DNA from: a virus
DNA: 64,000 nt
Reading direction: 5' to 3' (one strand)
Virus record (IMG/VR): IMGVR_UViG_3300042516_004698
Span: 1 to 64,000 of that record
Shown: positions 10,558 through 61,375 of the stretch, in pieces
Position numbering within the stretch: position 1 is the first letter of the stretch
How the letters are laid out: each line of letters starts with the position of its first letter
Position numbers and translations under genes: made by a program
The notes under the pieces: generated by a model
Told to the model about the DNA's origin: nothing
Seen by the model: the letters and a program-made list of their open reading frames with translations, nothing else
The model's database searches: none

Positions 10558-11862
10558 ATGGCACGGACGCCTCGCTCACTGTTTGCGCAACTGAACGCGC
10601 TTGCTGAAGAAATTTCGCAGAATGCTGAAAAGGTCGCGGCTGCAAAGTCTGCGTCCCCCGTGCCCGCCGATCCGGGCGGTTATCAGGGCGCTTCATCGCA
10701 CCCGAGCGCGCATGTTGATAACAATGTGCAGAAGGCGACGACCGGTTCGCGCGCTTCGGAATACGAAGCCGACGTTAAGAAGCAGCAGGGCGCGCTTGCC
10801 GTCGACAACACCCCCGAGCTTTCGCAAGAAGGCCGGCAGGACGACGTGCAGCTGAACATCGGCACCAACGCCGCTGCGACTGGCGAAGACCCGTCCGCTG
10901 AAAAAGATTACAAGGGCACGAAGGACGATCCGGGCACCACGCATCCGGCCAAGGCCAACGACGGCGAGAAGTACAGCTCGGTCACGTTCAAGCAGGCTCA
11001 CGCCAAGTGCAGCGATCTCGGCAACGAAATCCTTGCCGACCTGATTAACTTCGGCACCTCGGCTGTCGAAGAAAAGGCCGCTGGTATGCCGGACTTTATC
11101 CAGAAGAAGATCGACGCAAAAAAAGACAAGTCCAAGGGCGAGCTTAAAGGCGACCAGCACAAGCTGGACGTAGACGGCGATGGCGATATTGAGGGTTCAG
11201 ACCTTAAGAATCTTCGTGAGGGCAAAGAAGCCGCCTTTAGCGCTGGTTACGAGCTCGCCGCTGCGCTTGGTTTAGACAAGCAAGCCGCTGAGGCCAGTGT
11301 CCGGGACGTGTGCGCTAACACGCTGCGCGAAGCTGACGAGATGGCCGACCTGTTCGTCGGTTTCTACACGGCGAAGACGGCTGGTGCCGACCCGACTGAA
11401 GAAGCCGCCGAAGGTGAAGACCACAGCGCGGAAGGCGATAGTCAGTCTGGCGAAGCCGCTCCTGATATGGGCGGTGAAATGGCCGGGGCGCCCAGTGTTG
11501 AAGATATGATGGGCGGAGCTGGCGGTGGTGAGATGGGCGCTGCTCCCGGCGGCGAGCCGAGCGAAGAAGAAGCCCTGCAAGAGCTGGCGATGGCGCTGCA
11601 AGAGCTGGGCATATCCCCTGAAGAGCTGATGGCTGGCTTAGCCGGCGGCGGTGGTGAAATGGGCGGGATGCCGCCAGAAGGCATGCCGCCAGAAGCCGGT
11701 GCCCCGAAAATGGCCGCAGCGCGAGAGCTGCAAATGATTGGAAACGCCGTAGCTAATTTCAAGCGCGCCGGTGGTTTTCAGATCAAAGAGGCGCGCACCA
11801 AGCGGTCGCGTCAACTGCGTGACATTATGAAGGCCCACGTCCGCGAGCTCACAAGTCGTTGA
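10558..11862 (+). CDS. putative scaffolding / prohead core protein
   Basis: Acidic, low complexity, many K-x-A motifs, EF-hand-like DVDGDGDIEGSD; between protease and capsid genes. Confidence 0.6.
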   Translation: MARTPRSLFAQLNALAEEISQNAEKVAAAKSASPVPADPGGYQGASSHPSAHVDNNVQKATTGSRASEYEADVKKQQGALAVDNTPELSQEGRQDDVQLNIGTNAAATGEDPSAEKDYKGTKDDPGTTHPAKANDGEKYSSVTFKQAHAKCSDLGNEILADLINFGTSAVEEKAAGMPDFIQKKIDAKKDKSKGELKGDQHKLDVDGDGDIEGSDLKNLREGKEAAFSAGYELAAALGLDKQAAEASVRDVCANTLREADEMADLFVGFYTAKTAGADPTEEAAEGEDHSAEGDSQSGEAAPDMGGEMAGAPSVEDMMGGAGGGEMGAAPGGEPSEEEALQELAMALQELGISPEELMAGLAGGGGEMGGMPPEGMPPEAGAPKMAAARELQMIGNAVANFKRAGGFQIKEARTKRSRQLRDIMKAHVRELTSR

Positions 11863-11866
11863 ATTT

Positions 11867-11878
11867 AAACGGAGGTTT
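11867..11878 (+). promoter_or_regulatory. GGA-loop SD hairpin (weaker CsrA-type site)
   Basis: AAAC-GGAG-GTTT just before ATG 11881. Confidence 0.35.
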
Positions 11879-11880
11879 CC

Positions 11881-12306
11881 ATGTCCGATAAGAACGTTTT
11901 AGTCCAGAAGATCATCGACTACATCGGCTTTTCTGATGTTGCGATGAGCAAAGCGGCCGAAGTCCTCAAGACTCGCGAGTCGCAGCACGAGAAGATTGCT
12001 TCTCTGATTCCGGAGGCTGTGAAAGCTTGTGTTGAACACGAGCGCATCGAGCCGCATCAGAAGGAAGCACTGGCTGCTGCCCTGCAGGATCCGGTCCGCG
12101 CGATCGAGCTTGTTGTGAAGTTAGCGTCACACCGCAACGCGGCCGAGATGGCCCGTATCGGCGCGCCGACAACGACACAGAAGACGGCTGGATACGACCC
12201 GAACAATAGCGTCACAAGCTCGTACGTGGGCGCTCGTGACGGCAAGCTCCGGGCCTCGGACATTAAGTTGTTCACGGGCCTTGGGCTGAATCCGCCCACA
12301 AACTGA
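11881..12306 (+). CDS. putative head assembly protein
   Basis: Strong SD; KAA, KIAS, KLAS and KTAG motifs. Confidence 0.7.
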   Translation: MSDKNVLVQKIIDYIGFSDVAMSKAAEVLKTRESQHEKIASLIPEAVKACVEHERIEPHQKEALAAALQDPVRAIELVVKLASHRNAAEMARIGAPTTTQKTAGYDPNNSVTSSYVGARDGKLRASDIKLFTGLGLNPPTN

Positions 12307-12350
12307 TTGAGAGATTCTTTACTACGAAGTGCGTGGCGCACTTTAAACCC

Positions 12351-12368
12351 TAAGACACGGAGGTCTTA
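12351..12368 (+). promoter_or_regulatory. CsrA-consensus SD hairpin
   Basis: TAAGAC-ACGGAG-GTCTTA, perfect 6-bp stem with ANGGAN hexaloop, 3 nt before ATG 12372. Confidence 0.7.
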
Positions 12369-12371
12369 ACT

Positions 12372-12932
12372 ATGGCAGCTCCCGATCTTCCCTTCGAACA
12401 CGCCGTTGATATCAAAAAGGGCTGGTTCGACATGGCGTCGCTCGACTACTCGGCCAAGCTGGGTACAGTCGGCTACACCCTCCCGCGCGGCCGCGTGGTG
12501 CACCTTGAGCACGTAAACGGCGCAGAAGTTTTTCTGCCCGGCGTACGCGCTACTGACGTCGCTATCTTCCTGCTTAATGGCGCTAACGATGCCGACGTTT
12601 CAAACGACGGCACCACAGCTTCGGGCAAGTTTGTGCAGCAGGCGATCTCGCCGAGCGGCAAGCTGTCCGGCGTAGTGGCCACAGGCGGTTACGAGATCGA
12701 CTCGACAGAGTTCGTCTCAAACCGGTCTTACGTTGCCGGCGATCTTCTCACGGCCCCCCTCGGTGCTGCCTCCGGCAACGCCGCGACCGGTGGCGTGCTG
12801 ACCAACGCCAGCGTCACTCAGTTTGTCACACCGGTGGTCGGTGTGGTGTCCAGCGGTAAACACACCAACCACAACGGCGTCAGCACGCTCTCCTTCTGGA
12901 GCGTGTGGCTTCCCGGCGCGGTACCCGGCTGA
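12372..12932 (+). CDS. putative capsid decoration / cement protein
   Basis: Beta-rich 186 aa gene directly before the capsid gene; YVAGDLLTA and VVGVVS patterns typical of such proteins. Confidence 0.6.
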   Translation: MAAPDLPFEHAVDIKKGWFDMASLDYSAKLGTVGYTLPRGRVVHLEHVNGAEVFLPGVRATDVAIFLLNGANDADVSNDGTTASGKFVQQAISPSGKLSGVVATGGYEIDSTEFVSNRSYVAGDLLTAPLGAASGNAATGGVLTNASVTQFVTPVVGVVSSGKHTNHNGVSTLSFWSVWLPGAVPG

Positions 12933-12951
12933 AACTAACCCTTAACTATCA

Positions 12952-12967
12952 GGAACACGGAGGTTCC
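12952..12967 (+). promoter_or_regulatory. CsrA-consensus SD hairpin of the major capsid gene
   Basis: GGAAC-ACGGAG-GTTCC, perfect 5-bp stem, 2 nt before ATG 12970. Confidence 0.7.
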
Positions 12968-12969
12968 AA

Positions 12970-13896
12970 ATGCCTACACAGTCAGAAATCCAACTGCTCA
13001 ACGAAACACTGTTTGAGCAGCTCGACACTCCCGGCATGCAGAAGCAGGCCATCGACGCGGTTAACGACTTCACGCGCACCAAGATGCGTGAAGACGGGTT
13101 CTACCGGCGGATTATGCCGCCGCTGACAATCACCAACGACGAGCTCGACCGTCAGGTTGACACTGACAAGCCCGTCAAGATTGTCGATAAGGAACCCGAT
13201 TCCCCGGCTGCCGTGTCGATCCCGTTTGCCACGCTGCCCGTTAACTTTTACATCCGTGGCCCGCGTTACCGCGTCATGTTTGACCGGATCGTGTCGCCCC
13301 GCGCTGTGAAGGACGTCGACGAACTGCGCACCTACGTCATGGACATCCGGCAGGTTCTGTCGGACAACATGATCAAGGACATGCTCGCCGAAGAAGACGG
13401 AAAGTTCATGGCCGCGATCAACGCTGTGCTCCCGACTGCGGGCGCCCCGGCTGTTGGCTCGGGCGAAGTTCAATACGAGGAGATCTACGGTGGTATCACC
13501 CGCGAAACGCTGGTTGACGCCCTCAAGATCATGCCGCGTACGGCTTCGCACTTCGAGGTTGAGACTTGCCTCGTGAATAACCTCACGATCAAGGAGCTCC
13601 TCAAGTTCGGTCGCGACGAAATGGGTGGTGACTTCTCGCAAGACATCATCAAGAACGGCTGGGCGGAAACCAACTTCCTGAATTGCCGCTGGATCGTGAC
13701 GATCAAGACGGGCCTTGTCCCCACGGACAGCCTGTTCATGTTCGCCTCGCCCAAGTTCATCGGCAAGAACTACGAGCTCGAGCCCACCACGATGTACATC
13801 CGTCGTGAAGCTTACATGCTCGAGTATTTTGCCTATGAGACGACAGGCGGCTCGTTCGGCCATACGAACGGTCTGGCCCGCGTCGATTTCAAGTGA
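12970..13896 (+). CDS. putative major capsid protein (HK97 fold inferred)
   Basis: 308 aa; protease-scaffold-decoration-capsid order; strong C-ending codon bias; N-terminal MQKQA motif. Confidence 0.7.
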   Translation: MPTQSEIQLLNETLFEQLDTPGMQKQAIDAVNDFTRTKMREDGFYRRIMPPLTITNDELDRQVDTDKPVKIVDKEPDSPAAVSIPFATLPVNFYIRGPRYRVMFDRIVSPRAVKDVDELRTYVMDIRQVLSDNMIKDMLAEEDGKFMAAINAVLPTAGAPAVGSGEVQYEEIYGGITRETLVDALKIMPRTASHFEVETCLVNNLTIKELLKFGRDEMGGDFSQDIIKNGWAETNFLNCRWIVTIKTGLVPTDSLFMFASPKFIGKNYELEPTTMYIRREAYMLEYFAYETTGGSFGHTNGLARVDFK

Positions 13897-13927
13897 TAAC
13901 AACGTTTAACTTTCAAGGAGCACAGAC

Positions 13928-14311
13928 ATGGATCAGGTAAAGCAGGCGGCCGAGCAGGGTTATGCCACACTCGTGGCGGAACTTGCCGCGCCGTACTTTT
14001 TCGAGAAGCTTTCAGCGCACGGCATCTCGCCGCGCAATGAGGACGAGGCCGCAGAAATGTGGTCGGCCGCCCAGAAGCTTCATGTGCTCTATACAGCCGA
14101 GCAGCACAAGGCTGCCGCTGTACAGACCTCAAAGCTGGCTAGCGCCAACGAGCAGCTCGACGCTGTTCTTGTCGCCGCTGGCTTGGCCGGGTCTGAGAAG
14201 GTTGCGGCTTTTAATCAAGCGGCGGACGTCGCTGCGGCTCAGCCCAACATCGCCGACGCGGTGTTGAAGCTGCAAGCCGCTGCGGCGATCGCGCTGCAAA
14301 ACGCTAGCTAA
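13928..14311 (+). CDS. Ala-rich putative head protein
   Basis: AAGGAG SD; KQAA, KAAA, KLAS and KVAA motifs. Confidence 0.7.
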   Translation: MDQVKQAAEQGYATLVAELAAPYFFEKLSAHGISPRNEDEAAEMWSAAQKLHVLYTAEQHKAAAVQTSKLASANEQLDAVLVAAGLAGSEKVAAFNQAADVAAAQPNIADAVLKLQAAAAIALQNAS

Positions 14312-14329
14312 CTAATCTAGGAGCTTTTC

Positions 14330-14722
14330 ATGCCAAACACGACAACGGATCTCTATACGACTGTAAAGAACGTTTCTGGGACAACCCAGACGTTCGGGTT
14401 TCTTGGTAAGCACGGCAAGCGACTCGCGAACAACGAAACCTATTCGGTTCGTGGGGATCTTGTCGGCGCTCTCGGCGCAGAACGCAGCACACGGCGTTTC
14501 GCTGCTCTTGAGCGGGCGCTTGTTAACGGCGCTCTGACTATTGTAAAGTCTCCGTCGGTGTACTTGCTGAGCGAAACTGGTGGCAACACCCGCGAGCTTG
14601 GTATGGCGTCGACCAATGAGCTGGGCACAACGGTTCCGTCGTTTGCCGGCGGCGGTGACTTCATCGAGGGCGACCTGAACACTAATGACGTAGCGAGCTC
14701 TAGCAGCTCTAGCGCCCCCTGA
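14330..14722 (+). CDS. hypothetical virion protein with C-terminal Ser run
   Basis: AGGAG SD; last gene before a terminator hairpin. Confidence 0.7.
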   Translation: MPNTTTDLYTTVKNVSGTTQTFGFLGKHGKRLANNETYSVRGDLVGALGAERSTRRFAALERALVNGALTIVKSPSVYLLSETGGNTRELGMASTNELGTTVPSFAGGGDFIEGDLNTNDVASSSSSSAP

Positions 14723-14804: not shown

Positions 14805-15812
14805 ATGGTTGTAATTGCTACGCCGAATGCTCCGCCGCCAGAACCTTGCTGCGATACGGATACCGGAACGCCGCCGACGCCAGCCGCTGTGCCGTTTGCC
14901 GGCCAGAGCGTGATCAGCGCGCCAATATCTGCCGTCAGCGGTCAGCCTATTTTGTCTCGTATGCGGGCTGTGTCGCTCACACAGGGCCAGACAACGACAA
15001 TAGAGTGGCAGTTGCACGACAAAGACGGCGCCCCAATTAATTTAACGTCATTGGGTTTTACGAATAATTCGACGTCGTCCGGGCCGTTTCAAATCGTAAT
15101 GCGGATAAAAGAACAGGTAGCGCTCGGTATTGGCAACTACGGTCCGCTGCAGGTACCCGCCACTGTAAAAACAGCGGCTACCGGTATTGTGACAGTGGCG
15201 ATGACCGCGAATCTGACGCAACTGCCGGGAGTGTATTACGGCGAAATGGCGCTGATAGACACATCAAATCCGAACGTGTCGTCGAAAATGATTTTTTCGA
15301 ACACGTTTTCAGTGATTATTTCACGGAGTACGTTCGGTAACTCTACGCCGGGCGGTCCGCCGTCTATGGCAGAAATCCGATTGCATTTACGAGATAGCGC
15401 GCCCGGCGAGAGCTTTTTGCTCGACCACCTGATGTTTGACGACGCGGAAATCGCGCTGGCTATTACCCGGCCTATTCAATACTGGAACGAGATCCCCCCG
15501 CCGATCGCTACTTTTACAACGCAAGACTTCCCGTACAGGTATCACTGGCTTGAAGGTATTTGCGCCAATCTGTTCTTTATGGTTGCTGAGCAGTTCCGTA
15601 GAAACCAGTTGAGCTACTCGGCTGCAGGTATCGCGCTCGATGACCAGAACAAAGAGCCCAATTATGAGCGTGCCGGCCAAATGCGGTGGCAGGCGTACAG
15701 AGAGTGGGTGCGCGCGCAAAAAGCCTCGCTCAACCTTGAGGGCGGCTACGGCGAAGTCGGCTCGCTCTACCAATATGGCGTTTACTCGTCCGGTATTCGG
15801 TCTCGGTACTAG
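14805..15812 (+). CDS. putative head-tail adaptor / neck protein with N-terminal Ig-like domain
   Basis: Position after the head genes; BppU-like N-terminal part (APINLT, PGVYYGEM); helical C-terminal part. Confidence 0.5.
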   Translation: MVVIATPNAPPPEPCCDTDTGTPPTPAAVPFAGQSVISAPISAVSGQPILSRMRAVSLTQGQTTTIEWQLHDKDGAPINLTSLGFTNNSTSSGPFQIVMRIKEQVALGIGNYGPLQVPATVKTAATGIVTVAMTANLTQLPGVYYGEMALIDTSNPNVSSKMIFSNTFSVIISRSTFGNSTPGGPPSMAEIRLHLRDSAPGESFLLDHLMFDDAEIALAITRPIQYWNEIPPPIATFTTQDFPYRYHWLEGICANLFFMVAEQFRRNQLSYSAAGIALDDQNKEPNYERAGQMRWQAYREWVRAQKASLNLEGGYGEVGSLYQYGVYSSGIRSRY

Positions 15813-15814
15813 GC

Positions 15815-15851
15815 GCTAAAAATCCGTTAAAAATGCGGCATATTAAATAGT
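15815..15851 (+). promoter_or_regulatory. putative phage promoter, copy 1
   Basis: GCTAAA-N14-GCGGCATATTAAATAGT; same boxes and spacing as 58868-58904. Confidence 0.65.
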
Positions 15852-15890
15852 GGTGTTTGCTACTATTTGCCCGATTTAACGGAGGTATCG

Positions 15891-18463: not shown

Positions 18464-18570
18464 CTACGGATTTAAAATCAAATACCGGGTGTTTTATTTG
18501 CAGTTACCGTTTTTTATACTGTGAATAGCCACCAACCGATCAACGCTTTACGGCATGGAGAGTTTTAACT

Positions 18571-21537
18571 ATGGCATACGTTAAACCGCAAGTTCTTGTT
18601 TTCCAAGAATTCACAATTGTACCGACAGAAATCACTGAGCCGCTGCGCGCCCACATCTCGGGCCCTCACGCTGTGCTCCATCGGTATAACAACTCGGACG
18701 AGAAGGCGCTGATGCGCGTCGGCGTGTATAACCCCGCGGTCGACACCGCCTACGCGTGGCCGCAGCGGCTTGCAGGCTCGCGTATCGATGCGGATTATGT
18801 CAAGCTCTACGCCGATGACGCGCTGCTCCGTTACTACGAAGACACAATTAGCGATTTGGCTACAACCACACGGCCTGTCAAGCAAAAATCTAACTGGATC
18901 GAGTCTGTTGCTGGCAGCGGACCGAACGCTACAGCTATACATTACCGCGTAAACGGCGGCTTCAATCGCAGCGGCGTGTTCAAGGATCGTGACGTCAAGG
19001 TCGGCGACATCGTGTATCTGCGTTCTGTCGCCGACGATGTCAACTGCACCGAGACGACGCTGTGGACAAGTGTTGCTGGCTTTGCGAGCACCACGATCCC
19101 GTCAGAGATCGAAAACGCGACTGCCGACATCAATAACGCGGAATCAACTACTGCCGGTAGTTCTTCTGTCAAACTTGCCGGCGCGGTTAACCGAGTGCGA
19201 ATTGCCTCCGTAAATGCCGCCGACTATAGCGGCGTGGAAGACGGCGCGATAACAGAGGTGTACACCGTCGAGGTTGTTACGAGCTCAATCAGCGGCTGTA
19301 ACTCAGCTCGGCTGCGTGTGCGATCTGCCAGCAAACGTGACGATGTCGCGGAGGTGACGCCGGCAGCTTTCGGTAGCGAAACCGTCATCGGCACCCGCGG
19401 GCTGAAAGTTACGTTTGCGAACGCGGTTTTAGGCGCGCCGAATTCCAATACGTTCACCGCCGGCGTTGCGGTTGACACGTTTGTGATTGGTCAAAAATGG
19501 CAGATCACGGTGTCGCAAACTTTCGCTGAAGTAATCGCTATCTCAAACAACGAGAACAGCGTCGTCGCGGGCTCGTACACGGGCGACAAGAACGATACTT
19601 ACATCATCGAATGCACCAAGGGCGGATACGTCGAAGAAGGTGGCACGAACTTCCCGCATATTGTTGTGCGCACAGCCAAGGGTTTGGACTTTTCCGGCCC
19701 GTTTGAGGTTGTGAATTCGGGTGTTTTGGCCGGTGACTTTTTCCCGATTGGTTCGCACGGTGTGGCGGTAGCGTTTGCTACGGTTAGCCCAAGCAGCTCA
19801 AGCTCCAGCAGCTCAAGCGCGGGCAGCTCTGGCACGAGCTTTGTGCCGGTTGCGTCAATGCGCAAGGGCGACAAGTGGTACATCAAGGTCGTATCGAGCA
19901 AGGCTGGCCCGGTTAACCAACTGATTCTCCGCGACGACCTTCCAACAGCGATGCGAGCTGTTGTTACTATGAACGGCTCCACCGAAGTTGTTACGTATCC
20001 GGCTCTGGATATCCGCTTGTTCATCAAGTCTGATATTGAGATCACAGAAAACCGGGTCGGGTTTGCTCCACTCGTTAACTACACGAAGGAAGATACGCAG
20101 ATCGTTGTGAAGGCTGGCGCCATAGCTTATCACCCGGAATGGACGCTGGCCGGTGTCGAGCAGCCTTTGCCTGTTACTGCCGGCACGCTTTATGTGCAAT
20201 ACCGCGAGTGGTTGAGCGAGCTGTGCGATGAGGTCAACTCTATCGCCTCTGTGGCCGATCTTGATCAAATCCGCGGGCAGCTGGATCCTGATAACCCGTT
20301 AAAGTGGGGCGTGTACAAGGCGCTGTCAAACACGCTCGGCACTGTTGTTAAGTACACCGCTGTATGCGAACCCGACGATCTCGACAGCTGGGTGCAGGTG
20401 CTCGAGCGCATCAAGGGTCGCGACGACCTTTATAACCTCGTTCCGCTCACGTTTGATACGCGCGTGCACAATCTGTTCGCGGCGCACATCGGCGGCGAGT
20501 CGAACGAGATTCAGAACAACTGGAAGGCAGGTTTCTTCGGTATCCAAAGCCGCAACAGAAAAATGCTGGTGGGTGAAGGCGCGCCAATTGCTGGCGTGGC
20601 AGGCAACGAAATCGCGGAACCGGTACTTGCCACAATCAGCGACGACACCGCGGCGACTGGCGACCAGTACACGCTGCTGCAGGTGCCGAACGGTGTCGGT
20701 TACTTCATCACAAACGACGTGCAGCCCGGCGACCTTGTGCGGTATTCGTACACGGTAGACGGTTTCGGTGCGACCAAGTACTCCGAGTACGTCGTAGACG
20801 AGGTACTCTCAGAAAGCTCATTGCGGCTGTATTCCGGCACGGACACGGCTATTACAACGCCGCAACGTGTTGAGATTTGGCACAACATGAACCGGAACGA
20901 AATGGCTGATGATATCGCTGAGCGCGCAGGCGCTATGTCGAATCGTCGCGTGTGCGCCGTGTGGCCGGATCAGGTTGGCTCGGCAGGTACGCTGCAGCCC
21001 GGTTACTTCCTCGCCGCCGCCCTTGCGGGGCTGGCGTCGAGCGTGGTGCCGCATCAGGGTCTGACCAACGTAGAAGTGGCCGGCTTTGACGACTACACAA
21101 GGTCATACAAGATGTTTAACGAAACGCAGCTCAATCGTATGGCCGCAGCGGGCGTCTGGATTGTCACCGAAGATCGCGATGGCACGCCGTATAATCGACA
21201 CGCCCTCACGACCGACAACCTCGACCTTAATAGGCGTGAGGAGATGATTCGGCGCAACGTCGACTCAATCTCTTACCTGTTCCTGCGCCGCCTGCGTCCG
21301 TACATCGGCCGCACTAACGCGACGCCGTTAATGGTCACCTACCTGAGCAGCCGTGTATCCGAAGTAATTGATTTCCTCAAAAATAACGGCTACACGCAAG
21401 AGCTCGGGTCGCAGTTAATCGACGGCTCAATCCGAGTATTGCGTATACACCCGCTGTTAAAAGATCGCATTGAAATTGTGCTCGATTTAGTGGTGCCAGC
21501 GCCGCTGAACAACATTGAGCTGCACTTAGTGGTGTAA
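18571..21537 (+). CDS. contractile tail sheath protein
   Basis: N-terminal MAYVKPQVLVFQE; C-terminal RNVDSISY, RPYIGRTN, IEIVLDLVVPAPLNNIELHLVV typical of sheaths. Confidence 0.85.
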   Translation: MAYVKPQVLVFQEFTIVPTEITEPLRAHISGPHAVLHRYNNSDEKALMRVGVYNPAVDTAYAWPQRLAGSRIDADYVKLYADDALLRYYEDTISDLATTTRPVKQKSNWIESVAGSGPNATAIHYRVNGGFNRSGVFKDRDVKVGDIVYLRSVADDVNCTETTLWTSVAGFASTTIPSEIENATADINNAESTTAGSSSVKLAGAVNRVRIASVNAADYSGVEDGAITEVYTVEVVTSSISGCNSARLRVRSASKRDDVAEVTPAAFGSETVIGTRGLKVTFANAVLGAPNSNTFTAGVAVDTFVIGQKWQITVSQTFAEVIAISNNENSVVAGSYTGDKNDTYIIECTKGGYVEEGGTNFPHIVVRTAKGLDFSGPFEVVNSGVLAGDFFPIGSHGVAVAFATVSPSSSSSSSSSAGSSGTSFVPVASMRKGDKWYIKVVSSKAGPVNQLILRDDLPTAMRAVVTMNGSTEVVTYPALDIRLFIKSDIEITENRVGFAPLVNYTKEDTQIVVKAGAIAYHPEWTLAGVEQPLPVTAGTLYVQYREWLSELCDEVNSIASVADLDQIRGQLDPDNPLKWGVYKALSNTLGTVVKYTAVCEPDDLDSWVQVLERIKGRDDLYNLVPLTFDTRVHNLFAAHIGGESNEIQNNWKAGFFGIQSRNRKMLVGEGAPIAGVAGNEIAEPVLATISDDTAATGDQYTLLQVPNGVGYFITNDVQPGDLVRYSYTVDGFGATKYSEYVVDEVLSESSLRLYSGTDTAITTPQRVEIWHNMNRNEMADDIAERAGAMSNRRVCAVWPDQVGSAGTLQPGYFLAAALAGLASSVVPHQGLTNVEVAGFDDYTRSYKMFNETQLNRMAAAGVWIVTEDRDGTPYNRHALTTDNLDLNRREEMIRRNVDSISYLFLRRLRPYIGRTNATPLMVTYLSSRVSEVIDFLKNNGYTQELGSQLIDGSIRVLRIHPLLKDRIEIVLDLVVPAPLNNIELHLVV

Positions 21538-30122: not shown

Positions 30123-30830
30123 ATGTCAATATTTGGAAGCGACAGCGCGGGAAGCGTAGTTCGCGTCACGGCAAACCCGGACGTCAACGACGTTATTGTT
30201 ATACGTGTCGACAACTTCGAAGATAGCGCAATGTTCAATGTGCCGGTTACAGGCTACACGCTCGAGTTAAGCACAAATCATCAATTTTTACACACGCTTG
30301 ATGAGTTTATTTACGCGTTTGCGTTTGGCGACCGAATCGGCGAGCTGACGCTCACGGGCATCGCGTTTACTGCTCCCGCGTGCTCGGCGGCCGGCGCCGG
30401 CGGTTTTGCGCAAAGAAATATAACGGACGAGGTAAAACAGGAAAATGTTTACGAGTTTTACTTAGCCAACAAATTCTCGCGGTCATTGCGCCCGACCAAA
30501 ATTCAAATTGGCGGCAGTAAAGTGCAGCTTGTCGGGTTTTTAACTGGTATGCGTATGGAGGTACCCAACCCGCAGTTGCCTATCATGCAGTGGGCTTTGC
30601 GCTTCAATGTCGTCGTAGACCCGGGCGGCACTGCAACGACAGCTAGTTCGGGGGGCGGGGGAGGTGGAACTGGCCGCAGCGGGGGCACCGGCGGCAACAC
30701 GCGCCCCGGCCCGGGTCAAGGCCGGTTAAACCCGAACAACCCATCCGGCTGGGACGTGGTTGACGATTTTCTTGATACGTTTGTTAATACGGCAACTGGC
30801 GTACTTACTGACACGTTTTTAGGCGACTAA
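30123..30830 (+). CDS. putative tail tube initiator / baseplate protein
   Basis: Follows the tape measure; FGDRIGELTLTG tube-like motif. Confidence 0.55.
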   Translation: MSIFGSDSAGSVVRVTANPDVNDVIVIRVDNFEDSAMFNVPVTGYTLELSTNHQFLHTLDEFIYAFAFGDRIGELTLTGIAFTAPACSAAGAGGFAQRNITDEVKQENVYEFYLANKFSRSLRPTKIQIGGSKVQLVGFLTGMRMEVPNPQLPIMQWALRFNVVVDPGGTATTASSGGGGGGTGRSGGTGGNTRPGPGQGRLNPNNPSGWDVVDDFLDTFVNTATGVLTDTFLGD

Positions 30831-33553: not shown

Positions 33554-34348
33554 ATGGCAGCACAACAAAAGCAAATTACGTCAATCCTCGGCGATACGCC
33601 AGCGCCGTTTTCGCAGCAGCACCACACCGGGGTGGAGAATGATTTTGCTAGCACACACCAGATGTGGCAAAAAAATCAAACACCCGCTATGAACACAAAG
33701 ATGCTCGCGGCTATACAACCTACTATCGATACGGCTGTATCTAGCTACGTCGGTCAAAATCCGTCGGCGGCGCTCAAAACACGAGCAAAACTGATGGCGC
33801 TGAAAGCCATGCAAAACTTTGATCCTGCGCGTGGCAATGTACGTACGCACTTACTTTCGCAGATGCAGAGTTTGCGCAGATTATCAGCACAAGAGCAAAA
33901 CATTATCGGTGTACCTGAGCAGGTCGGCCTAGACTACCAACACTTGGCCGAAGCTGAACGCGAATTGCAGGACAGCCTAAGCCGCGATCCGTCAGACGAT
34001 GAAATAGCAAACGCCACAGGTCTGTCAGTACGCCGTATCAATAAAATACGCGCGTTTCATAAGCCGATTGCCGAGGGATCCACGATTATTGAGAACGAGG
34101 ATGACTATTCAGACGGCGGAGTAGCGAGTAAAGTGCCGGGCCAAACAAATGCGCAAGATGCGTGGATGGATTTTGTGTACGGTGACTTAACGCCAACAAA
34201 TAAGCTAATTATGGACATGTCGCTTGGCCGCAATGGGCGCCGCAAGGCAAGCGTACAAGAGATAGCGCAACGGCTCAATGTCACGCCGGGCGCAGTCAGT
34301 CAGCGGGCGGCAAAAATTCAAGCAATGCTAAACAAAAACGCACTTTAG
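33554..34348 (+). CDS. RNA polymerase sigma factor, sigma-70 family, FliA/WhiG-like
   Basis: Region 2 FDPARGNVRTHL; region 3 LSRDPSDDEIANATGLS; region 4 HTH SVQEIAQRLNVTPGAVSQR. Confidence 0.85.
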   Translation: MAAQQKQITSILGDTPAPFSQQHHTGVENDFASTHQMWQKNQTPAMNTKMLAAIQPTIDTAVSSYVGQNPSAALKTRAKLMALKAMQNFDPARGNVRTHLLSQMQSLRRLSAQEQNIIGVPEQVGLDYQHLAEAERELQDSLSRDPSDDEIANATGLSVRRINKIRAFHKPIAEGSTIIENEDDYSDGGVASKVPGQTNAQDAWMDFVYGDLTPTNKLIMDMSLGRNGRRKASVQEIAQRLNVTPGAVSQRAAKIQAMLNKNAL

Positions 34349-39278: not shown

Positions 39279-39299
39279 TTAACGCCGCGGAGGACAAGG

Positions 39300-41204
39300 A
39301 TGTCCAACAACTGGCTTTTTAATATCAGGCACATCGCGGCAGGCGAGCCCGTACAGGCAGAAGTTGTCGGTCGGCCGGATAAATCGCTTGAACAGCGTAC
39401 AGATTATCTGAAAGACCGGCTCGACGCGGCGGCGCTTGGGCGTGCGTTATTTGACGTAGACGCCACAATAGCGCCAGACGTGCTGGAGGGGCAGCCCGTG
39501 TTCTGGAACTACCAGACGCAGCGCTATGAGCGCGCTCTGGCGGCTGTAGAAAACGACGACGTTACGCAGACGCTCGTAGTACAGGCCTCGTCTGATTGTC
39601 TGGGGCTGCTGTACAGCAAGAAGTCGCCTACGCTCGGGGATATTGTGCTGCGCGGCATTGTTAAGCTCCCGGGGCTTACTAACGCTATAACCGGGCCAAT
39701 CACGGCCGGCCGCTATTACCTGTCGTCAGAGGCCCCGGGCAAACTGGTGAAGCAGCGCCCGCCTGCTACGGTCTCTGTGTGCTACGTGCAAGGCGCCAAG
39801 GACAGCTGCGCCGCTGATCCGTGGGTTGTGGTAATGCCACAAGTGCGCGACTTCCTTGAGGATCACATTCATTATCGTTTTGAACTGGTCACACGGGCTG
39901 CCGGCGTGCTCTCAACTGCGAACGGCAAAGTGAGCATCACCCAGCCAGACGCCACACTTCAGGGCTGGCTGCCGGCATCGCATGCGGTGTTTAACGGCAA
40001 AGCTCCGGCTGGCGCGGTATTCGGATACAACCTGTCAGCGCACCTGCAGCTGTCCCGTGTGTGGCCGCCGCAGCCTGTCAGCGCCGTAGCTATGCTTTGG
40101 GATAAAGGCCAGAACCTTGTAGGCGCGACTGAAATACCGCTTGGCCGAGAAGGCTTGGCCATATGCGACGCCAACGGTATCTGGTGGACGAGCGACTGCG
40201 TAGGCGACGTTCCGTGGGTTGCAGGCGTATCCAGCTCATCTTCATCTTCATCTTCATCTTCAAGCTCGAGCGCTAGTTTGAGCGCCGCGGCAGAGTGCCC
40301 GCGTGACGAGCGTATGCGCGTCATTGTCGTGTTTCTGCGCATGGTATTCGGTAATGATCGCAGCGTAGTCACGAGCTTGCAGGCCGGTCCCGGTAGCCCG
40401 ATCCGCGTAACTAATTGCGACGGGCTGGTTGCTAAAACTGGCGACCTCGAATTAAACCTCGATCTCAACTTAGCAATTAAACCGCCCGACCTTGATGGCG
40501 CGCGCGTACTCAAGCGAATTGAAGACGGGTATAAATTTCGGCAGGGGTGGGTAACCGAAGGCGTTGTGAGCGGCTCTGCGCCAATTGTTGTAACAAGCTA
40601 CCCAAGCAATCCAGTGGCGGCGCGTGCGCTTACCGCCGCCGAAAAAACAGGGTTGGGTTTTCCCGCAGAAGCGGACATAACGGCGCAGCGCGGCTTAGTC
40701 AAAATCTCGTTTAATGACGCGCTCGTCGAACGCGAACTGTCGCCGCAAATCATACGGCTATCGGACGCCGTGGAGCGGCTCTACAAAGACGTGCCGTATA
40801 TCGGGTTTCCATCCGGACAAGACTCGTTGGTGCGCGTCCGGTTTATTGTGCCAGCTGCCGGGCTTGGGTTGGGTCTGCAGGTTGTATTGCGCGCGCAGTT
40901 ACTCGGTCTCAGCACTGGCGCCTTACCAGAACTCGAAGTTACATATCGCAGATTGCCAAGACCCGCTGGCGCGCCGATCTCGCTTGTAGCCGTAGACGTA
41001 TCGCCGGCGTTGGCGTTTGCTTCAAATGTAGCCGTAACGGCAAACAACGTTGTGGAGATTGAAAGCGCGCCGTTTCCTGTTGCTGAGGGCGATACCGTAC
41101 TTGTTACCATGCGGCGTCGTTTAGTCGGCGGCGGCTCAGACGGATATCTCGGCGAGGTCGGTTTGTTGCGTTTATCTGGAATAGTCACCAATGTTGGGCC
41201 GTAA
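39300..41204 (+). CDS. putative tail fiber-associated structural protein
   Basis: LEQRTDYLKDRL motif typical of fiber N-termini; internal Ser run. Confidence 0.55.
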   Translation: MSNNWLFNIRHIAAGEPVQAEVVGRPDKSLEQRTDYLKDRLDAAALGRALFDVDATIAPDVLEGQPVFWNYQTQRYERALAAVENDDVTQTLVVQASSDCLGLLYSKKSPTLGDIVLRGIVKLPGLTNAITGPITAGRYYLSSEAPGKLVKQRPPATVSVCYVQGAKDSCAADPWVVVMPQVRDFLEDHIHYRFELVTRAAGVLSTANGKVSITQPDATLQGWLPASHAVFNGKAPAGAVFGYNLSAHLQLSRVWPPQPVSAVAMLWDKGQNLVGATEIPLGREGLAICDANGIWWTSDCVGDVPWVAGVSSSSSSSSSSSSSSASLSAAAECPRDERMRVIVVFLRMVFGNDRSVVTSLQAGPGSPIRVTNCDGLVAKTGDLELNLDLNLAIKPPDLDGARVLKRIEDGYKFRQGWVTEGVVSGSAPIVVTSYPSNPVAARALTAAEKTGLGFPAEADITAQRGLVKISFNDALVERELSPQIIRLSDAVERLYKDVPYIGFPSGQDSLVRVRFIVPAAGLGLGLQVVLRAQLLGLSTGALPELEVTYRRLPRPAGAPISLVAVDVSPALAFASNVAVTANNVVEIESAPFPVAEGDTVLVTMRRRLVGGGSDGYLGEVGLLRLSGIVTNVGP

Positions 41205-58867: not shown

Positions 58868-58904
58868 GCTAAATTTTCCGCAAAATCGCGGCATATTAAG
58901 TAGT
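58868..58904 (+). promoter_or_regulatory. putative phage promoter, copy 2
   Basis: GCTAAA-N14-GCGGCATATTAAGTAGT at the structural / non-structural boundary. Confidence 0.65.
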
Positions 58905-60036: not shown

Positions 60037-60556
60037 GGAAACCTCCAAGGAAGAAAAACCGGTTACTTGGCGTATGGTAACCGAGACCGTAAAACTCAGC
60101 AAGTTGCAGTTACGCAATATCGTTAAATTAGCTAATCAACAATTACCCAATCCGGACGACGAAATACAGCCAGAATTGCTGATGTGCGTATTAACCGCAG
60201 ACATGCTTATGCGGTTGTCGTTTCTGTCTGCCGAGCAGCGCGAGCTTATTCTGAGCGAGTCAGCCTATGCTCGAAACGCGGGTATTTCTGAGTTCGCCCA
60301 GATAGTGTTTGCCGACGGGCAATACTGCACGTGGACCGAGAATACCGGATTTTTAAACCTCGAGACCGGGGAGACCTTAACCCAGATACCCGTCCCGCCT
60401 ATGGAGACTATTTCGTATAATCTGACTGAGCTGTATAGGCGCGGAAGACATCAAATAACAAAGCGGTATCATCATGGCAAACGACCCGATGCTCAAAGCG
60501 ATGTGGAAGAGCCCGCAGACGTTCGCGAGCGTTCTGCTGACGGTGTTTCTGGATAG
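60035..60556 (+). CDS. hypothetical protein
   Basis: AAGGA SD 8 nt before ATG 60035; METSKEEKP... Confidence 0.6.
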   Translation: METSKEEKPVTWRMVTETVKLSKLQLRNIVKLANQQLPNPDDEIQPELLMCVLTADMLMRLSFLSAEQRELILSESAYARNAGISEFAQIVFADGQYCTWTENTGFLNLETGETLTQIPVPPMETISYNLTELYRRGRHQITKRYHHGKRPDAQSDVEEPADVRERSADGVSG

Positions 60557-61151
60557 GTTCGGGGTCGAGGGGCTCCAGTGGGATCCCGCCACAATTACGC
60601 TGGAGGTCGAAGAGGAGTTTGACGTCGACCTGCCGCAGGCGTCGTTAGACAAGCTTCTCGTGGCTATTAACATCGTCACATCGGACTCGTTCTACCGCAG
60701 CCTGCCCGATTTCGTAATGTTCTGCAACGTGCTCAGTGGTGACACCTACCGGCCAGACATGTTCGACCCGGCAGATAGCTCTGAAGTGGCGTGGGGGCTT
60801 ACAGAGGGGCTGCTGCTCTCGCCGCCTGAAGACGATCAGGACGGCCCTTTCAGCGACGAGATCAGAGCCTATATCGGAGCCGTGCTGGATCAGGAAGGCA
60901 TTATCAACGCGCCGGACGTGCTTAAGATCGCCCTGCGTAAAGCCAACGTGTCCGATGCGGCAAATGAGTTCTCAGACGACCCGGACATGTTCAACGCCGT
61001 CTACGACGTTGAGGCCGGGAAAGCTGCCGAGGTGGACGATATCATTCGAGCGAAGGTACAAATGCTGCTGGGGCAATTGCAGGCGCTCCAGCTGCGAAAC
61101 GGCGCTACTGGTGCCGTAGTTAAAACGCTTGCAGCGTCTCTTTCTAGATAG
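60474..61151 (+). CDS. acidic hypothetical protein
   Basis: 225 aa ORF with gene-like codon usage. Confidence 0.7.
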   Translation: MANDPMLKAMWKSPQTFASVLLTVFLDRFGVEGLQWDPATITLEVEEEFDVDLPQASLDKLLVAINIVTSDSFYRSLPDFVMFCNVLSGDTYRPDMFDPADSSEVAWGLTEGLLLSPPEDDQDGPFSDEIRAYIGAVLDQEGIINAPDVLKIALRKANVSDAANEFSDDPDMFNAVYDVEAGKAAEVDDIIRAKVQMLLGQLQALQLRNGATGAVVKTLAASLSR

Positions 61152-61159
61152 GAAACAAC

Positions 61160-61375
61160 GTGCTTGTTTTAGCGCGAAAACGTGATGAGGTCATAATGAT
61201 CGGCGACAACATCAAGATCACAGTCGTCGAAATACTACCCCACGCCGTTAAAATCGGCATCGACGCTCCGGCCGAAACGACGATCGTACGTAAAGAGCTT
61301 ATCGCCAAGATGAAATTCGATCATCGGGCGCAACGGCCTAAAATCGGCAAAGATAACAAAGCAAATAAAGCTTAG
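61160..61375 (+). CDS. csrA: carbon storage regulator CsrA/RsmA family RNA-binding protein
   Basis: MLVLARKRDEVIMIGDNIKITVVEI...VKIGIDAP...IVRKEL; the RNA-binding Arg44 is retained. Confidence 0.93.
   Translation: MLVLARKRDEVIMIGDNIKITVVEILPHAVKIGIDAPAETTIVRKELIAKMKFDHRAQRPKIGKDNKANKA

Follow-up and report, generated by a model that had tools for sequence, protein, structure and literature searches.

What do the nearly identical hairpins at the starts of a phage capsid gene and its upstream neighbor do, and which protein, if any, reads them? We addressed this question in IMGVR_UViG_3300042516_004698, a contig of 75,370 bp whose first 64 kb form the window analyzed here. The contig is estimated to represent ~37% of a jumbo phage genome and carries nearly every gene on the + strand. 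Profile searches identified a fragment of a bacterial-type RNA polymerase beta' subunit (995-2857) and a sigma factor with Sigma70 regions 3 and 4 (33554-34348), and a sheath-like protein is encoded at 18571-21537. Almost no family was assigned to the head, tail, and neighboring proteins with Pfam and PHROGs. DNA near-identical to the window is found in lake-water metagenomes, and the phage family consists of freshwater (lake-water) jumbo phages with genomes of roughly 200 kb. A blastn search with the head region returned no match to cultured phages, none of which is similar at the DNA level.

The gene at 12970-13896 (+ strand) is the probable capsid gene, encoding a 308-aa major capsid protein with a probable HK97 fold. 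This protein is the most conserved of the phage family and has no Pfam or PHROG match. Its AF2 model is of low confidence (pLDDT 52), and the top Foldseek matches of this model in the PDB were all phage major capsid proteins (lambda gpE, YSD1, PhiTE, and Chi; TM ~0.3, E 4e-4 to 1e-3).

Hairpins at gene starts in the window

An earlier note on this DNA had listed four hairpins with ACGGAG or ATGGAG loops, and we read all four directly from the sequence, each on the + strand. The capsid gene hairpin, GGAAC-ACGGAG-GTTCC (12952-12967), ends 2 nt 5' of the ATG at 12970. The upstream neighbor, a 186-aa gene with a putative 'decoration' function (12372-12932), is preceded by TAAGAC-ACGGAG-GTCTTA (12351-12368), which ends 3 nt 5' of the ATG at 12372. 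AAC-ACGGAG-GTT (1-12) lies ahead of the ATG at 17 of the gene at 17-763; the contig begins here, and the 5' arm may be cut. Orthologues of this gene have TTTAC-ATGGAG-GTAAA (genome G010) and TGAT-TCGGAG-ATCA (G011). The fourth hairpin, GCCGC-ATGGAG-GTGGC (2929-2944), has 5 bp including one G-U and is part of the MFE fold (-6.6 kcal/mol). It precedes the gene for a 798-aa head-region protein, which most likely starts at GTG 2946 by comparison with G004, where CAGC-ATGGAG-GCTG is also followed by GTG. The G012 orthologue has TCC-ACGGAT-GGA.

The same design recurs elsewhere on the contig. GGAC-AAGGAT-GTCC (39292-39305, + strand) is 5' of the gene for a 634-aa tail-region protein; the ATG at 39300 covers its loop and 3' arm, and the last bases of the SD GGAGGAC make up its 5' arm. 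An identical hairpin is found at 30760 in G004. Beyond the window, CGTC-ACGGAG-GACG occupies contig positions 65635-65648. The motif ACGGAGG has nine copies on the + strand of the 75-kb contig, eight of them directly 5' of start codons. The three copies of ACACGGAGGT are each at a gene start and agree with (A/U)CANGGANG(U/A).

Two parts of the earlier description did not survive. The hairpins had been said to bury the ribosome-binding sites. In fact the SD is displayed and not buried, as GGAG is located in the loop and the stems are worth only -3 to -6.6 kcal/mol; the MFE fold of a longer leader does not always include the hairpins. Five additional 'weaker' GGA sites had also been proposed. 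All five have the ACGGAGG SD in common and none forms a hexaloop stem: the site at 11867 gives only AAAC-GGAG-GTTT (-0.3 kcal/mol), the one at 15871 has a 5-bp stem with an 11-nt loop, and those at 18553, 21543, and 58933 have no usable stem.

Two minor features were recorded in the same survey. A hexaloop hairpin, GGC-ACGGAC-GCC (10563-10574), is formed by codons 2-5 of a 434-aa gene starting at 10558, and may be either a chance occurrence or an early-coding CsrA-type site. Outside the window, at contig positions ~65545-65590, a tRNA-like sequence (GCCGGTGTAGCTCAGTTGGTAGAGCG...) lies directly 5' of the gene with the CGTC-ACGGAG-GACG hairpin.

Stem covariation at the capsid gene and its upstream neighbor

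With the capsid protein as query, 63 loci at 99-29% identity were recovered from IMG/VR, most of them on contigs of 150-226 kb. The capsid gene hairpin is kept throughout the clade with at least 66% capsid identity, with a loop of the form A-(C/U/A/G)-GGA-G and compensatory stems (GGAAC/GTTCC, AGAAC/GTTCT, AAGAC/GTCTT, GGAC/GTCC, and TTTC/GAAA). Among 37 distinct sequences, the pair types along the stem were GC18/AU11, GC22/AU4, AU26/GC6, and AU33/UA3. The covariation score was 0.374 versus 0.145 for shuffles, and none of 500 reached it. The hairpin at 12351 behaves in the same way (TAAGAC/GTCTTA, TTAGAC/GTCTAA, AAAC/GTTT, and GTGAAC/GTTCAC in relatives), with a score of 0.260 versus 0.155 over 38 distinct relatives and again 0 of 500 shuffles. 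Controls with slid pairing partners scored below the true value for both hairpins. The earlier observation that the loops are near-identical while the stems differ yet stay paired thus holds well beyond the window, with stems covarying in 37-38 distinct relatives and the loop kept as A-N-GGA-G.

Covariation of this kind implies selection on a structure at the RNA (or single-strand) level and counts against a motif of duplex DNA such as a promoter. We weighed a DNA-level origin of the hairpins, in which they would serve the phage RNA polymerase as promoters or hairpin promoters, together with chance or a paralogous repeat. The phage does encode RNA polymerase subunits and a sigma factor, and AACA-N6-TT resembles the pattern of the AR9 late promoter. 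However, the stems covary instead of keeping their sequence, the SD forms the loop and keeps a fixed distance of 9-13 nt to start codons, and the enrichment described below is tied to strand and SD position. Enrichment of intergenic 6-mers returned SD variants only, with no promoter common to the hairpin genes. We consider an origin of this kind extremely improbable. A scan of 11700-14500 for sigma-70 promoters and terminators also gave nothing above shuffles.

A second stem-loop, GAAGTGCG-TGG-CGCACTTT (12326-12344), lies between the stop codon of the gene at 11881-12306 and the hairpin at 12351. In relatives the hairpin is kept with very different stems (GGAAC..GTTCC, CCGGAA..TTCC, and CACA..TGTG). 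It may be a terminator or attenuator, or a stabilizer of a 3' end; it has no clear U-tract and was missed by the terminator scan. Relatives of the phage are also present in a freshwater RNA library (metatranscriptome run X24), with DNA carry-over possible. Two stretches, 12045-13025 (spanning the junction of the upstream gene and the capsid gene) and 12968-13385, are covered by contigs 85-99% alike, and with them the 11881 gene, this junction, and the capsid gene of relatives. The run says nothing on transcript starts, as the contigs give no ends, strand, or level and DNA may have been carried over.

Hexaloop enrichment at SD sites across the family

We assembled ten related genomes from 20-kb pieces and analyzed them together with the contig itself (G000). 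Genes were called with a home-made scorer of codon usage and SD that is blind to hairpins, and the gene starts rest on it. For each GGA located 6-16 nt 5' of a start codon, we tested for pairing of the flanks around an NNGGAN hexaloop with a stem of at least 3 bp. The null was obtained by permuting the 3' flanks among the sites within one genome.

If the hairpins formed a CsrA regulon as the earlier note proposed, they should exceed shuffled SD contexts. This was found in five csrA-carrying relatives, with 14-22 SD hairpins per genome against 2.5-4.4 expected: G010 (22 versus 2.7), G004 (19 versus 2.9), G012 (19 versus 3.2), G014 (15 versus 4.4), and G015 (14 versus 2.5), whose csrA is a weak match (E 1.3e-4). 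Enrichment was weak in G016, which has two csrA copies (8 versus 3.3). G011, in which the csrA locus is off the contig, had 7 versus 2.9, and the partial G000 had 3 versus 0.6. Observed and expected counts were close in G013, which has csrA (3 versus 2.8), and there was no excess in G019 (1 versus 3.1) and G024 (2 versus 2.0), which have no csrA. The strongest statistics come from the complete relatives and the covariation rather than from the partial G000.

The signal is specific for one geometry. Among 25 loop registers tested, only the one that places GGA between two 5' loop nucleotides and one 3' loop nucleotide was enriched (52 versus 8.1; with stems of at least 4 bp, 33 versus 2.1). In the csrA-less G019 and G024, no register was enriched. 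A generic hairpin test allowing any loop of 4-9 nt gave a far weaker signal than the hexaloop test, so the enrichment reflects this register and not general folding. An A occupies the first loop position in 48 of the 52 hairpins, compared with 138 of 354 (39%) other SDs, and 34 of the 52 have C-G as the closing pair. At loop base 2, C or U frequently takes the place of the SD-optimal A. Stems have 3 bp (19 hairpins), 4 bp (20), 5 bp (11), or 6 bp (2), and in most cases the first G of GGA is 9-13 nt 5' of the start codon.

Position and strand also matter. On the sense strand, 20.7% of the ANGGAN motifs placed as an SD form hairpins, compared with 3.6% elsewhere (Fisher 1e-28). The corresponding values were 1.1% and 2.6% in csrA-less genomes and 4 of 23 versus 8 of 155 in G000, and hairpins on the antisense strand were few.

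These features bear on whether the hairpins need a dedicated protein at all. They could be cis elements independent of CsrA that keep the SD single-stranded or tune local folding and stability. The weak stems and exposed GGAG would suit such elements, as would the fact that the best-conserved hairpins are on abundant virion proteins and that the spacers upstream of hairpin genes are longer (median 40 versus 17 nt). However, display of the SD predicts neither a fixed loop size nor a register, and only the CsrA register is enriched. It also leaves the near-invariant loop A and the paired last G of GGAGG unexplained, and csrA-less relatives are enriched in no register. Gaps of at least 60 nt are alike in frequency for hairpin genes (0.40) and other genes (0.34). 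We regard an explanation without a protein as rather unlikely. A promoter-proximal role, as stabilizers of 5' ends, was rejected separately: the spacers are slightly longer but gaps of at least 60 nt are not in excess, and hairpin genes are therefore not specifically promoter-proximal.

Most sites stand alone. Tandem hairpins 20-27 nt apart occur within single leaders (87786/87759 in G004 and 43012 in G010), but hairpin sites are not enriched for a second GGA or ANGGA within 60 nt, and no genome examined has a cluster of more than two hairpins. This differs from many CsrA targets with dual sites.

The set of genes is wider than the capsid and head regulon originally suggested. Of the hairpin genes in the complete relatives, about three quarters are located outside the head module. 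In G004, for example, five of ~19 are in the head module and the others are scattered small genes with no known function. Our best reading, from the sequences of these genomes, is that candidate operators are present on about 10% of phage genes. The sites are also gained and lost between close relatives. The orthologue of the gene at 14805 has AAC-ACGGAG-GTT in G004, a hairpin absent in the window phage. The sheath-like gene has stems of GGC/GCC in G004, AGGC/GCCT in G010, and GTGC/GCAC in G012, and its stem is broken in the window phage.

The phage CsrA as candidate reader of the hairpins

The earlier note had placed csrA at 61160, and the assignment is secure. The gene (61160-61375, + strand, GTG start) encodes a 71-aa protein that matches PF02599 (E 1.5e-20; 73.4 bits versus a cut-off of 27; residues 1-51 of the 53-position model) and phrog_9500. 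Residues 1-55 of the protein align with E. coli CsrA (1Y00/5Z38) and RsmE. Mutagenesis of E. coli CsrA identified L2, L4, R6, R7, and R44 as RNA-contact residues. The phage protein keeps L2, L4, R6, K7, and R44 (MLVLARK..., ...IVRKE). In the family, the R44 equivalent is kept in nine of nine CsrA homologues, and all homologues keep an MLVL(S/T)RK start.

The hairpins match known CsrA/RsmE operators in several respects: they overlap the SD, their loop is an ANGGAN hexaloop, and their short stem is usually closed by C-G. RsmE contacts the A and GGA of the ANGGAN hexaloop, the CsrA SELEX consensus is RUACARGGAUGU, and SELEX hairpins mostly have six-nucleotide loops, stems of up to 4 bp, and AC/GU closure (PMC7652899; PMC3791407). 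The closest parallel is the stem-loop at the hcnA ribosome-binding site of Pseudomonas that is bound by RsmE/CsrA (PDB 2JPP), which also has an ANGGAN hexaloop, C-G (AC/GU) closing pairs, a stem of ~3-5 bp, and GGA as the SD core. The phage regulator resembles RsmE and E. coli CsrA in being a PF02599 protein with conserved L4/R6/R44. Unlike hcnA, the operators here would be on the virus's own genes, including that of the major capsid protein, and on ~10% of genes.

The hairpin structure, its conservation, the register-specific enrichment at SDs, and the intact RNA-binding residues of CsrA are directly established. We interpret the SD hairpins, with somewhat better than even confidence, as CsrA-type translational operators on phage mRNAs, read most likely by the phage's own CsrA. 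The phage probably tunes the translation of its own genes through these candidate docking hairpins. Each operator would be an RNA hairpin of 3-6 bp, usually closed by C-G, with an A-N-G-G-A-N hexaloop whose GGA is the SD core. A CsrA dimer, more likely that of the phage than that of the host, would clamp the loop and compete with the 30S subunit. CsrA could in this way set the level and timing of translation of the capsid protein, its upstream neighbor, and ~10% of other genes. The effect would presumably be repression, as at hcnA and glgC. Repressing the most heavily needed protein is, however, not an obvious strategy.

Of 15 relatives with at least 90% completeness, 14 have PF02599, making csrA a core gene of the family. 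The sole exception is G019, a member of a distant clade (29% capsid identity) that also has no hairpins. Co-occurrence of csrA and hairpins, a check suggested in the earlier note, is supported by the csrA-less G019 and G024, which have no enrichment, but fails for G013 and for two unrelated csrA carriers, Pseudomonas phage F116 and Vibrio phage 431E45.1, which have csrA and no enrichment of SD hexaloops. The presence of csrA is thus not sufficient for hairpin enrichment. Moreover, the contrast by csrA presence amounts to a single evolutionary event, the one distant csrA-less clade. G011 was dropped as a csrA-less control: its contig stops inside a gene beside the csrA locus, so it is no true negative.

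The same observations bear on which CsrA would read the sites. The host's CsrA might read the hairpins, with the phage CsrA serving a different purpose, for example to reprogram host mRNAs or to compete with the host protein or its sponge RNAs. The sites do not discriminate between the two proteins, since the RNA-contact residues are common to both. A role of phage CsrA on host targets would fit F116 and Vibrio phage 431E45.1, which carry csrA and no sites, and G013 likewise has csrA without sites. On the other hand, the site-carrying family retains csrA in 14 of 15 near-complete genomes, the sites are missing from the csrA-less clade, and this reading presupposes a CsrA in the host. We consider reading by the host's protein distinctly unlikely.

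Another factor that recognizes GGAG in a loop, for instance a RegB-like endoribonuclease or a different RNA-binding protein, could also be involved. T4 RegB cuts GGAG within SD sequences, and most of the phage proteins have no known family. However, the RegB family (PF10715) has no match in five genomes and the details of the motif are close to those of CsrA targets, making such a factor very improbable.

Reading by the phage CsrA can be compared with other systems of translational control by an RNA-binding protein. In the CsrA-FliW-flagellin switch of Bacillus subtilis and Campylobacter, CsrA restrains an abundant self-assembling structural protein through GGA hairpins that overlap the SD, and the logic of a morphogenetic checkpoint would be similar here. 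The phages differ in having no sign of a protein antagonist: FliW (PF02623) had no match at E values up to 1 in the five family genomes searched (G000, G004, G007, G012, and G014). In further contrast to bacterial Csr/Rsm systems, no sponge RNA was detected in the window, where none of the Rfam models, including those of the Csr/Rsm sponge sRNAs (CsrB, CsrC, and RsmX/Y/Z), reached its gathering score. The coat protein of MS2/Qbeta, acting on the replicase operator hairpin, and T4 RegA are phage-encoded proteins that act on RNA elements overlapping ribosome-binding sites and time or balance synthesis, as proposed here. Their folds and operators are unrelated to those described here, where the regulator is a captured bacterial global regulator.

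Phage csrA genes are usually assumed to manipulate the host. PF02599 homologues are also carried by the Pseudomonas F116 group, Vibrio phages, and coliphage PTXU04, and the members of these groups that we tested for SD hexaloops, F116 and Vibrio phage 431E45.1, differ from the present family in having no enrichment. The first catalogue of phage csrA, in 2020, found the gene in 1.2% of phages (PMC7366521), and its role in the phage cycle was untested before a knock-down in coliphage PTXU04 in 2025 (PMC11879866). Our literature search found no published description of cis CsrA operators on phage genes. The cis evidence presented here suggests that CsrA acts on the phage's own mRNAs, that of the capsid gene included.

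We give about an even chance to a broader scenario suggested by these comparisons, in which freshwater jumbo phages captured CsrA and built a translational regulon of their own. It would comprise ~15-20 operators per genome that evolve by gain, loss, and compensatory change, including long-kept ones on the capsid gene and its neighbor. If so, synthesis of virion proteins would be controlled post-transcriptionally, independently of the RNA polymerase and sigma factor that the phage encodes. The few translational controls of phages (MS2 coat protein, T4 RegA and gp32) would then be joined by an RNA-binding regulator captured from bacteria. The hairpins provide a testable set of ~20-nt candidate operators with natural compensatory variants in dozens of genomes.

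The csrA locus has several further features. The csrA leader of G012 has a hairpin of its own (TCGA-AAGGAG-TCGA), and the csrA leader in the window has no hexaloop site. CsrA diverges fast: phages with 92% identity in the capsid protein share ~45% in CsrA (the window phage, G004, G010, and G012). Its C-terminal tail is variable: the protein has 71 aa in the window, and G004 has a Thr/Ser-rich tail in an open frame of ~109 aa. F116 (L186, 363-569) has two CsrA-like genes, one of which (F116p47) lies within the virion structural module, directly after a structural protein gene.

Directly upstream of csrA in the window, G004, and G010 is a gene for a 225-aa protein of no known family (60474-61151 in the window). 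In G016 its homologue and the second csrA are 1.2 kb apart, in G012 it is far from csrA, and a weak homologue is found even in the csrA-less G019. An exact repeat, GCGGCATATTAA, is found at 15835-15846 and 58888-58899, with four matches at up to one mismatch versus 0.57 expected. Each of the two exact copies precedes a small gene with an ACGGAGG SD by ~40 nt, and csrA is downstream of the second copy. GCGGCATATTAA may represent the -10 region of a promoter used with the phage sigma factor (33554-34348).
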